Source: Escherichia coli
Lineage (GTDB): Bacteria > Pseudomonadota > Gammaproteobacteria > Enterobacterales > Enterobacteriaceae
Length of the DNA stretch: 64,000 bases
Assembly: GCF_045037415.1 (NCBI RefSeq)
Contig: NZ_CP173438.1
Strand: one strand, 5' to 3'
Numbering within the stretch: position 1 is the first letter of the stretch; each line of letters starts with the position of its first letter. Positions 50,001 to 53,000 of the stretch are shown in pieces. The position numbers are program-made.

Positions 50001-53000
50001 GCCCTGCTGGACAAAATTAAACGCTACTTTATCGCCGGTTTTAATTTCGCTCATTTTCGTCTGCGGGGTGATGGTAAAGCGCATAGTCATCTCCGGCCAG
50101 TTCACGGCAGCAATCGGATCGTGATGGATGGTGATTTTTTTGCTTTCCAGATCAACACCTTTTACCACGCCAGTGGCGCTAATAACCTGTGGTTGTGCTT
50201 CGCTCATGGTTTCATGATGATGTTCGTTAGCCTGGGCATTAAAGCCAATAACGGTAAACAGACTGAACATTGCGACTTGCAGTGCTTTTTTCATTTATTC
50301 TCTCCTGGAGTTAAAAATTATTGCTGCCAACCGCCCCCTAAGGCGGTATATAAAGAAATTTCGTTAACCTGACGGGCATAATTCAGGTCAAGTAAAGTTT
50401 GTCGGGTTGCAAATAAAGAACGTTCAGCATCCAGCACTTCCAGATAACTGACTGCGCCGTGCTGATATAATGCCCGCGCCCGTTGCAGGGTAATTTGCAG
50501 CGACGCAAGATAACGCTGCTGGGCGCTGATTTGATCGTTCAGGCTTTGACGTAATGCCAGCGCATCTGCCACTTCTTTAAAGGCGTTCTGGATTTTCTGT
50601 TCATAATTCACCACCGACTGCTGCTGGCGAATTTCGGTGATATCCAGATTGGCCTGGTTGCGTCCGGCATTAAAAATGGGGATCTCAATTTTAGGAATAA
50701 AATTCCACATCCCGCTGCTGGCGTTAAATAATGACGACAGATCGCTGCTGGCGGTTGATATTCCGCTGGTCAGGCTGATAGACGGGAAAAATGCCGCACG
50801 CGCAGCACCAATATTGGCATTAGCCGCCATTAACGCGTGTTCAGCTTCCATAATATCAGGGCGCTGCAATAAGATTTGCGACGACAAGCCCGCCGGTAAT
50901 TTAACGCTTTGCAGGCTGTCGCTGTTTACTGTCTGCGCTTGCGGCAGCTTGCCGTAGCTTCCCAATAACAGTTGCAATGCATTATTCGCCTGCGCCAGTT
51001 CCCCCTGACGTTTAGCGATGTCGCTGCGGGTACTTTCTATCACCCCGCGAGCCTGTTCCAGCGCCAGAACATTGCTGCTACCGGTCAACAGTTGTTTTTC
51101 GACAAACGCATATGACTGCTGATAATTACGCAGCGTTTCTTCGGCTATTTGCAATTGCGCATACGCCAGTTGCTGATTGAAATAGCTTTGCGCGACATTA
51201 GAAACCAACAGAATATGCACCGCGCGCTGAGCTTCCTCAGTGGCTAAATAATTTTGGCGCTCGGCTTCGCTCATGTTCTTTAAGCGACCGAAAAAATCGA
51301 GATCAAAGCTGGCGTTAAGGCCAGTCGATAACTCCCGCGTCGTGGCTGAATCGCCTTTAAGATTGCCGCTCCAGCTGCCGCTGCCCTCGCCATTGAGCTG
51401 TGGGTAGCGGTCGGCATCGGTCAGACGATATTGCGCCCGCGCTTCCTGCACTTTCAGCGCCGCCATGCGCAAATCCCGGTTATTCACCAACGCCTCGCTA
51501 ATCAGCGTCTTCACCTGATTATCAACAAAAAAGGTGCGCCAGCCCGCGTTCTGGTAGTTATCTGCTGCGTTAACCAGGCCGTTCTGGCTGAGTGAGAACT
51601 GCTGCGGCACGGGCATTGCCGGACGCTGATAATCCGGTGCCAGTGAACAACCGGTTAGCGCAAGGGCCACACAAAATGGCAGAAGTTTACAAGGAGACAT
51701 AGGCTCATAATTTCTGGTGATTTTATGCTGCCAACTTTACTCGCCAGGCTCTGATTTTCCGGTGACAGGAAAATGACAAAATTGTCATTTTGCCAATAAG
51801 CGATTGCCATCTGATCCCGCTACTCTAGAATTGCCCGGGCAACATGCGGAGGAAATATGAAACTGTTGATTGTCGAAGATGAAAAGAAAACCGGAGAATA
51901 CTTGACCAAAGGGTTAACCGAAGCCGGTTTTGTGGTCGATTTGGCCGACAACGGGCTGAATGGCTACCATCTGGCGATGACCGGTGATTATGATCTGATA
52001 ATCCTCGATATTATGCTGCCGGACGTGAACGGCTGGGATATCGTGCGCATGTTGCGTTCCGCCAATAAGGGGATGCCGATTCTGTTGCTTACCGCGCTTG
52101 GCACCATTGAACATCGCGTCAAGGGGCTGGAGTTGGGGGCGGATGACTATCTGGTGAAGCCGTTCGCTTTTGCTGAACTGCTGGCGCGGGTGCGCACTCT
52201 ACTGCGGCGCGGAGCGGCGGTAATTATCGAAAGTCAGTTTCAGGTTGCCGATCTGATGGTCGATCTCGTCAGCCGCAAAGTCACCCGCAGCGGCACGCGC
52301 ATCACTCTGACCAGTAAAGAATTTACTCTGCTGGAGTTTTTCCTCCGCCATCAGGGCGAAGTGCTGCCCCGCTCGCTTATCGCCTCGCAGGTATGGGACA
52401 TGAATTTTGACAGCGATACCAACGCCATTGATGTGGCGGTGAAGCGGCTGCGCGGCAAAATCGACAACGACTTTGAGCCAAAGTTGATTCAGACCGTGCG
52501 CGGCGTGGGTTACATGCTAGAGGTGCCGGATGGTCAGTAAGCCATTTCAGCGCCCGTTTTCGCTGGCAACCCGCCTGACCTTTTTTATCAGCCTCGCCAC
52601 CATCGCGGCGTTTTTCGCCTTTGCATGGATCATGATCCACTCGGTAAAAGTGCATTTTGCCGAGCAGGATATTAATGATTTAAAGGAGATTAGCGCCACC
52701 CTTGAACGGGTACTTAATCACCCTGACGAAACGCAAGCCCGACGCTTAATGACGCTGGAAGATATCGTCAGTGGTTATTCCAATGTGTTGATCTCCCTGG
52801 CAAATAGCCACGGTAAAACGGTGTATCACTCCCCCGGTGCGCCGGATATCCGCGAGTTTACGCGTGACGCCATACCCGATAAAGACGCGCAGGCTGGCGA
52901 GGTGTATCTCCTTTCCGGCCCGACGATGATGATGCCAGGGCACGGTCACGGGCATATGGAACACAGCAACTGGCGGATGATTAACTTGCCGGTTGGCCCG

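Follow-up and report, generated by a model that had tools for sequence, protein, structure and literature searches.

The interval 51701-51856 of the 64-kb window analysed in the present study (the window being the whole stretch of 64,000 nucleotides of Escherichia coli DNA) is almost certainly the divergent regulatory region that E. coli carries between cusC and cusR, including the CusR operator. The cus regulatory region in this genome is canonical, intact and already known, and nothing unexpected is found in it. A previous sequence-only reading had described a canonical cus divergent promoter with a CusR palindrome between cusC and cusR, and this description is supported by the RefSeq gene names, the published CusR box and the identity to K-12; the palindrome lies at 51770-51791, inside a spacer of 156 bp, and the interval assigned to the promoter, 51701-51856, coincides exactly with this spacer, which is bounded by the start codons of cusC (51700, minus strand) and cusR (51857, plus strand). 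The only addition made herein refines the anatomy of the operator and promoters to a modest extent and is drawn from comparative sequence analysis and from an experimentally studied analogue. Two points of that reading are refined: the conserved operator looks larger than the palindrome, and the divergent promoters look unequal.

The genes flanking the spacer form two complete transcription units. On the minus strand are cusC (outer-membrane channel, 460 aa, 50318-51700; NF007347, 902 bits), cusF (periplasmic metallochaperone, 110 aa, 49962-50294), cusB (membrane-fusion adaptor, 407 aa, 48723-49946) and cusA (RND permease, 1047 aa, 45568-48711), the last three assigned by K-12 alignment and NCBIfam. 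On the plus strand are cusR, encoding an OmpR/PhoB-family response regulator of 227 aa (51857-52540; NF007346 equivalog, 507.9 bits against a cut-off of 420), and cusS, encoding a Cu(I)/Ag(I) sensor histidine kinase of 480 aa (52530-53972; NF007345, 984 bits against a cut-off of 423), which overlap by 11 nt and are followed in the ORF layout by nfrB from 54122. In a profile search, all six Cus proteins scored above the curated NCBIfam cut-off of their own Cus family, and the identities to K-12 MG1655 were 227/227 for CusR, 109/110 for CusF, 1039/1047 for CusA, 399/407 for CusB and 474/480 for CusS; for CusC, 452 of the 457 K-12 residues are identical, and three additional C-terminal residues are present here. 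The ORF check and the K-12 comparison revealed no internal stops in the six cus ORFs, all of which are full length. The claim that cusCFBA and cusRS are intact is therefore borne out, since the six full-length ORFs are near-identical to those of K-12 and free of internal stops. The gene order ybdG-pheP-cusABFC / cusRS-nfrBA-ybcH is common to the window, K-12 and ST131. The spacer between cusC and cusF measures 23 bp in this genome (50295-50317), as in ST131, and in this comparison K-12 alone carries a 134-bp cusC-cusF insertion with imperfect 24-nt inverted ends (K-12 extract 8975-9131). This insertion takes the place of the last three CusC codons (WQQ), giving a protein of 457 aa in K-12 compared with 460 aa, and it resembles an ERIC/IRU element. 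Near the end of the window, a tRNA-Arg gene (anticodon TCT) was observed at 63763-63839 on the minus strand; its K-12 counterpart, argU, is a prophage integration site.

The alignment to the K-12 cus intergenic region, which was the check attached to the sequence-only reading, was gapless, with 154 of the 156 spacer positions identical to MG1655 and the palindrome undisrupted. The two substitutions fall outside the palindrome: position 51729 has T here where K-12 has C, and position 51769 has G where K-12 has A. The K-12 region described by Munson et al. (2000) and by Yamamoto and Ishihama (2005), as these are reported in citing papers, has the same 22-bp box, gene order, 156-bp spacer and CusR. 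Moreover, over the 356 bp around the spacer the identity to ST131, O25:H4 and O6:K2:H1 genomes is 100%, and the spacer allele is that of ST131/B2 genomes. The cus region was found at an identity of at least 95% in 5335 of 5426 complete E. coli genomes, nearly always as a single chromosomal copy, and RefSeq names the flanking genes cusC and cusR in every genome listed; no match to the cus regulatory region was obtained in 91 of the 5426. These counts bear out the expectation of core content, and on sequence comparison the locus belongs to the E. coli core and the genome is of the B2 type. The same search of complete E. coli genomes also returned five plasmid matches and at least one genome with two copies. 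A natural disruption was observed in E. coli strain 755 (NZ_CP183129.1, extract 3090-3860), in which a copy of IS26 abuts the 5' end of cusC. The match at this junction is confined to the first 89 of the 356 query bases, so that neither the promoter region nor cusR is present; hypothetical and ash-family genes come next, and the cusCFBA genes are kept.

The palindrome itself, AAAATGACAAAATTGTCATTTT, occupies positions 51770-51791 as a 22-mer with two arms of 10 nt each (51770-51779 and 51782-51791) that are 100% complementary and separated by a 2-nt centre, that is, AAAATGACAA-AA-TTGTCATTTT. Its assignment as the CusR box is based on symmetry, conservation, the published consensus and the K-12 ChIP-chip and gSELEX peaks described below. 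It is an exact match to the published CusR box AAAATGACAAnnTTGTCATTTT, which has been located between cusRS and cusC(F)BA (Yamamoto and Ishihama 2005, as cited in 10.1101/2023.09.26.559466). In the 64-kb window it is the sole site at up to three mismatches, no match was obtained in 100 dinucleotide-preserving shuffles, and a scan at five substitutions gave one extra weak match, at 17042. K-12, O157:H7, ST131, E. whittamii and Escherichia sp. MOD1 all have the identical box, which forms the best-conserved island when nine spacers are aligned across genera.

The distribution of the exact arms was surveyed in one genome per species, covering 100,044 species, and 37 loci were obtained. A cusR homologue adjoins 14 of these loci (three Escherichia, Citrobacter koseri, seven Providencia, Shimwellia, Psychromonas, Acinetobacter and a Rhodocyclaceae genome). 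The CusR identity among them is as low as 61%, and the exact palindrome is adjoined by cusR homologues only 61-72% identical in Providencia, Psychromonas, Acinetobacter and the Rhodocyclaceae genome. Three further loci adjoin other copper-type genes, namely a multicopper oxidase gene in Enterovibrio, a gene for a Met/His-rich periplasmic protein in Psychrobacter, and genes for an outer-membrane factor and an RND pump in a proteobacterial MAG. AT-rich Firmicutes, Mollicutes or candidate-phylum MAGs account for about 16 of the 37 exact matches; the flanking DNA examined contained no copper genes, and these matches are treated as chance or unrelated occurrences. In Shimwellia pseudoproteus (extract 5520-5541), the exact box is located downstream of cusS, at the position of the silE promoter, and upstream of a gene for a Met/His-rich protein of 113 aa, which looks DUF305-like by eye. 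Homologues of cusF, cusB and cusA come after this gene, with no CusC homologue detected between it and them.

The conserved operator appears to extend beyond the palindrome, as there is a third half-site next to it, in phase, on the side of cusC. This element, GTGACAG (51762-51768; TGTCAC on the cusC strand), was recognised from its conservation and from the AgrR analogue described below, and it is positioned 11 bp in phase with the cusC-side arm of the palindrome. The cusC strand reads TTGTCATTTTCCTGTCAC, in which TGTCAT-N5-TGTCAC forms a tandem pair repeating every 11 bp that resembles the direct-repeat sites typical of OmpR/PhoB-family regulators. GTGACAG is invariant in all nine aligned spacers, which comprised five E. 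coli lineages, two other Escherichia species, C. koseri and the sil plasmid. Among the exact-box loci, 16 of the 17 that are copper-linked have TGAC at the exact offset, and on a single side, compared with 1 of 20 others (Fisher p = 2e-8), a count in which the loci are non-independent (seven Providencia, three Escherichia) and selected for exact palindrome arms. Approximately ten distinct lineages or contexts share the third half-site within otherwise diverged sequence. At all divergent cusC/cusR or silC/silR loci it is located on the cusC (silC) side, and at silE and in Shimwellia, Enterovibrio and Psychrobacter it is located toward the downstream gene. The difference between K-12 and B2 at 51769 falls between the third half-site and the palindrome. 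The sole locus classed as non-copper with TGAC at the exact offset is in a Salinisphaera MAG (extract 765-786; genome of 60% G+C), for which 3.6 kb around the box were examined, and this locus may be an unrecognised copper-regulated promoter.

A similar architecture has been studied experimentally in Cupriavidus metallidurans, in which the AgrR box consists of an inverted repeat and an in-phase, promoter-proximal direct repeat, both of which contribute to binding and activation, full activation requiring the two together (PMC7380067). The cusC side likewise shows an inverted-repeat core with an in-phase, promoter-proximal copy of the half-site, and the arrangement predicted at cusC would resemble that of AgrR in placing the activator at a class II position (PMC7380067). 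AgrR differs from CusR in its half-site (ATTACA), its 6-4-6 spacing, the activity of its unphosphorylated form, and its organism and regulon. Since AgrR has the same architecture, this is a known kind of arrangement in the subfamily; a contribution of the extra half-site to binding and activation has been shown for AgrR only and is proposed for CusR by analogy. In addition, GTGACAG is proposed as a promoter-proximal CusR contact at about -40 to -35 of the predicted cusC promoter.

The promoter positions discussed herein rest on consensus matches and conservation. The predicted cusC -10 element, TAAAGT, is read from 51739 to 51734 on the minus strand and was assigned by its fixed offset and by alignment. 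The corresponding ACTTTA at 51734-51739 is conserved in the alignment of nine spacers, and 13 of 17 oriented loci have TAnnnT at one fixed offset, -36 nt relative to the edge of the palindrome; these loci are distributed over Escherichia, the sil plasmid, Providencia, Shimwellia, Psychromonas, Acinetobacter and Psychrobacter. No recognisable -35 element is present at a 17-bp spacing from TAAAGT. Transcription of cusC would start at about 51727, with the third half-site at about -40 to -35, and the third half-site together with the proximal arm would form a pho-box-like tandem pair centred at about -43, the position of a class II activator. With this pair in the place of a -35 element, cusC should depend fully on its activator. 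Another cusC promoter returned by the scan, TTGGCA/AATTAT (51734 to 51707), was rejected; it would place the start of transcription at the ATG, with no leader, and it is unconserved in C. koseri and sil. For cusR, the consensus scan predicted a -35 element TTGCCA (51804-51809), a 16-nt spacer and a -10 element TAGAAT (51826-51831) on the plus strand, matching 10 of 12 sigma-70 consensus positions, and the bases TTGnnA and TAnAAT do not vary among Escherichia, C. koseri and the sil plasmid. A ribosome-binding site, GGAGGA, can be read at 51848-51853 on the plus strand, 3 nt upstream of the ATG at 51857. The predicted cusR start at about 51838 would place the box centre at about -57, an arrangement allowing basal expression and upstream stimulation of the class I type. 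These features suggest that the cusC promoter is activator-dependent and without a -35 element and that cusR has a good sigma-70 promoter of its own. It is possible, and we advance it tentatively, that the functional CusR operator is tripartite rather than a simple 22-bp palindrome, with GTGACAG replacing the missing cusC -35 element and forming a pho-box-like tandem pair with the arm.

Besides the K-12 region, one of the closest known relatives of this arrangement is the plasmid-borne sil system. On the K. pneumoniae plasmid NZ_CP024530.1, silCFBA and silRS have the same divergent layout, SilR is approximately 87% identical to CusR, and the silC-silR box, ATAATGACAATGTTGTCATTTT, has one arm mismatch compared with the cus box; the same third half-site, GGTGACAGG, and TAAAGT are found at the same offset as in cus. 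The silE promoter contains a degenerate palindrome with an in-phase TGTCAT, and a TATAAT is located at the same offset as the cusC -10 element. In contrast with cus, sil is plasmid-borne and mobile, its spacer measures 189 bp, the sequence outside the operator and promoter elements differs, and it includes the additional genes silE and silP and is linked to pco. The hiuH-hprR box (CATTACAAAATTGTAATG) and the PcoR "copper box" are, like that of cus, palindromic operators of the OmpR/PhoB subfamily in divergent regulator/target spacers, and they are cross-recognised by CusR and HprR; they differ from cus in the half-site (TTACAA compared with TGACAA) and belong to other loci, outside this window.

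The binding of regulators to this spacer has been described in K-12. A ChIP-chip analysis detected one CusR peak genome-wide, in the cusC-cusR spacer (10.1101/2020.08.17.251918), and gSELEX showed a single peak of unphosphorylated CusR in the same spacer, together with the strongest peak of HprR (PMC8249747). Phosphorylated CusR at the box activates both divergent operons (PMC10920338), and reporter fusions form part of the K-12 evidence for this copper/silver-inducible activation. Because neither the box nor the CusR protein differs from its K-12 counterpart, these results can be transferred to the present genome, and the box would, by this identity, be a binding site of phosphorylated CusR and also of HprR. 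CusS would sense periplasmic Cu(I)/Ag(I) and phosphorylate CusR, and phosphorylated CusR would bind at 51770-51791 and switch on cusCFBA leftward and cusRS rightward, the latter as positive autoregulation; HprR, a peroxide/HOCl-responsive paralogue, would recognise the same box. All of these steps have been shown in K-12. A point against this explanation, which concerns the sign of regulation when no inducer is present, is the description of unphosphorylated CusR as a repressor of cusCFBA (PMC8249747). The HprR data raise the question of whether the palindrome is mainly a site for HprR (YedW), with peroxide or HOCl stress rather than copper controlling the region, as the strongest HprR peak falls in this spacer and the two regulators share a recognition sequence, for which their affinities differ (PMC8249747; PMC9302797). 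However, the binding of HprR adds to the role of CusR and does not replace it, the cognate cusRS genes are adjacent and intact, the copper induction of cus depends on CusRS, and the exact box co-occurs with cusR homologues across genera. Control of the region mainly by HprR is consequently considered very unlikely.

The survey of exact arms also bears on whether the palindrome could be the operator of a LacI-family repressor. Three of the 37 loci have a CG centre (AAAATGACAACGTTGTCATTTT) and adjoin genes for LacI-family regulators, in a Comamonadaceae MAG, Xylophilus and Klebsiella spallanzanii (extract positions 1529-1550, 3299-3320 and 4221-4242, respectively). All of these LacI-linked copies are CG-centred and without the third half-site, whereas the centre here is AA, and no LacI-family gene is adjacent in this genome, in which the neighbours are cusC and cusR; a LacI-type operator at 51770-51791 is so improbable as to be negligible, and the CG-centred copies look like a convergent operator of an unrelated regulator family. 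A structural role, as a transcribed hairpin (terminator or attenuator), or the absence of any role, as a chance AT-rich palindrome, might also be considered, and the single strand does fold into a 9-bp hairpin (-7.7 kcal/mol, z = -2.6). The stem is, however, AT-rich, with no G+C-rich core; a terminator scan of 51600-51960 gave no terminator-like sites, and no Rfam family matched in the spacer. Moreover, the palindrome should not be transcribed, because it is located upstream of both predicted promoters. A chance origin is countered by the shuffled sequences, none of which yielded a match, and by the standing of the palindrome as the best-conserved island of the spacer across genera. A hairpin or chance origin thus seems barely credible, and the reading of 51770-51791 as the CusR operator is retained. 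Elsewhere in the window, an Rfam match to the ES036 (CssrF) sRNA was observed at 26100-26141 on the plus strand (42.2 bits compared with a gathering score of 37.6).

Beyond annotation, these results are of little importance: they confirm that the chromosomal copper/silver efflux system of a genome of the B2/ST131 type is intact and wired as usual. Knowledge of the conserved third half-site and of the -10 element at a fixed distance could nevertheless guide promoter engineering, e.g. of copper/silver biosensors based on PcusC, and could help in interpreting promoter variants in silver-adapted strains. If the arrangement proposed herein is true, the asymmetry of the operator could account for the different responses of two divergent promoters to a single symmetric site, with cusCFBA being strictly activator-dependent (class II) and cusRS being expressed at a basal level and stimulated (class I).
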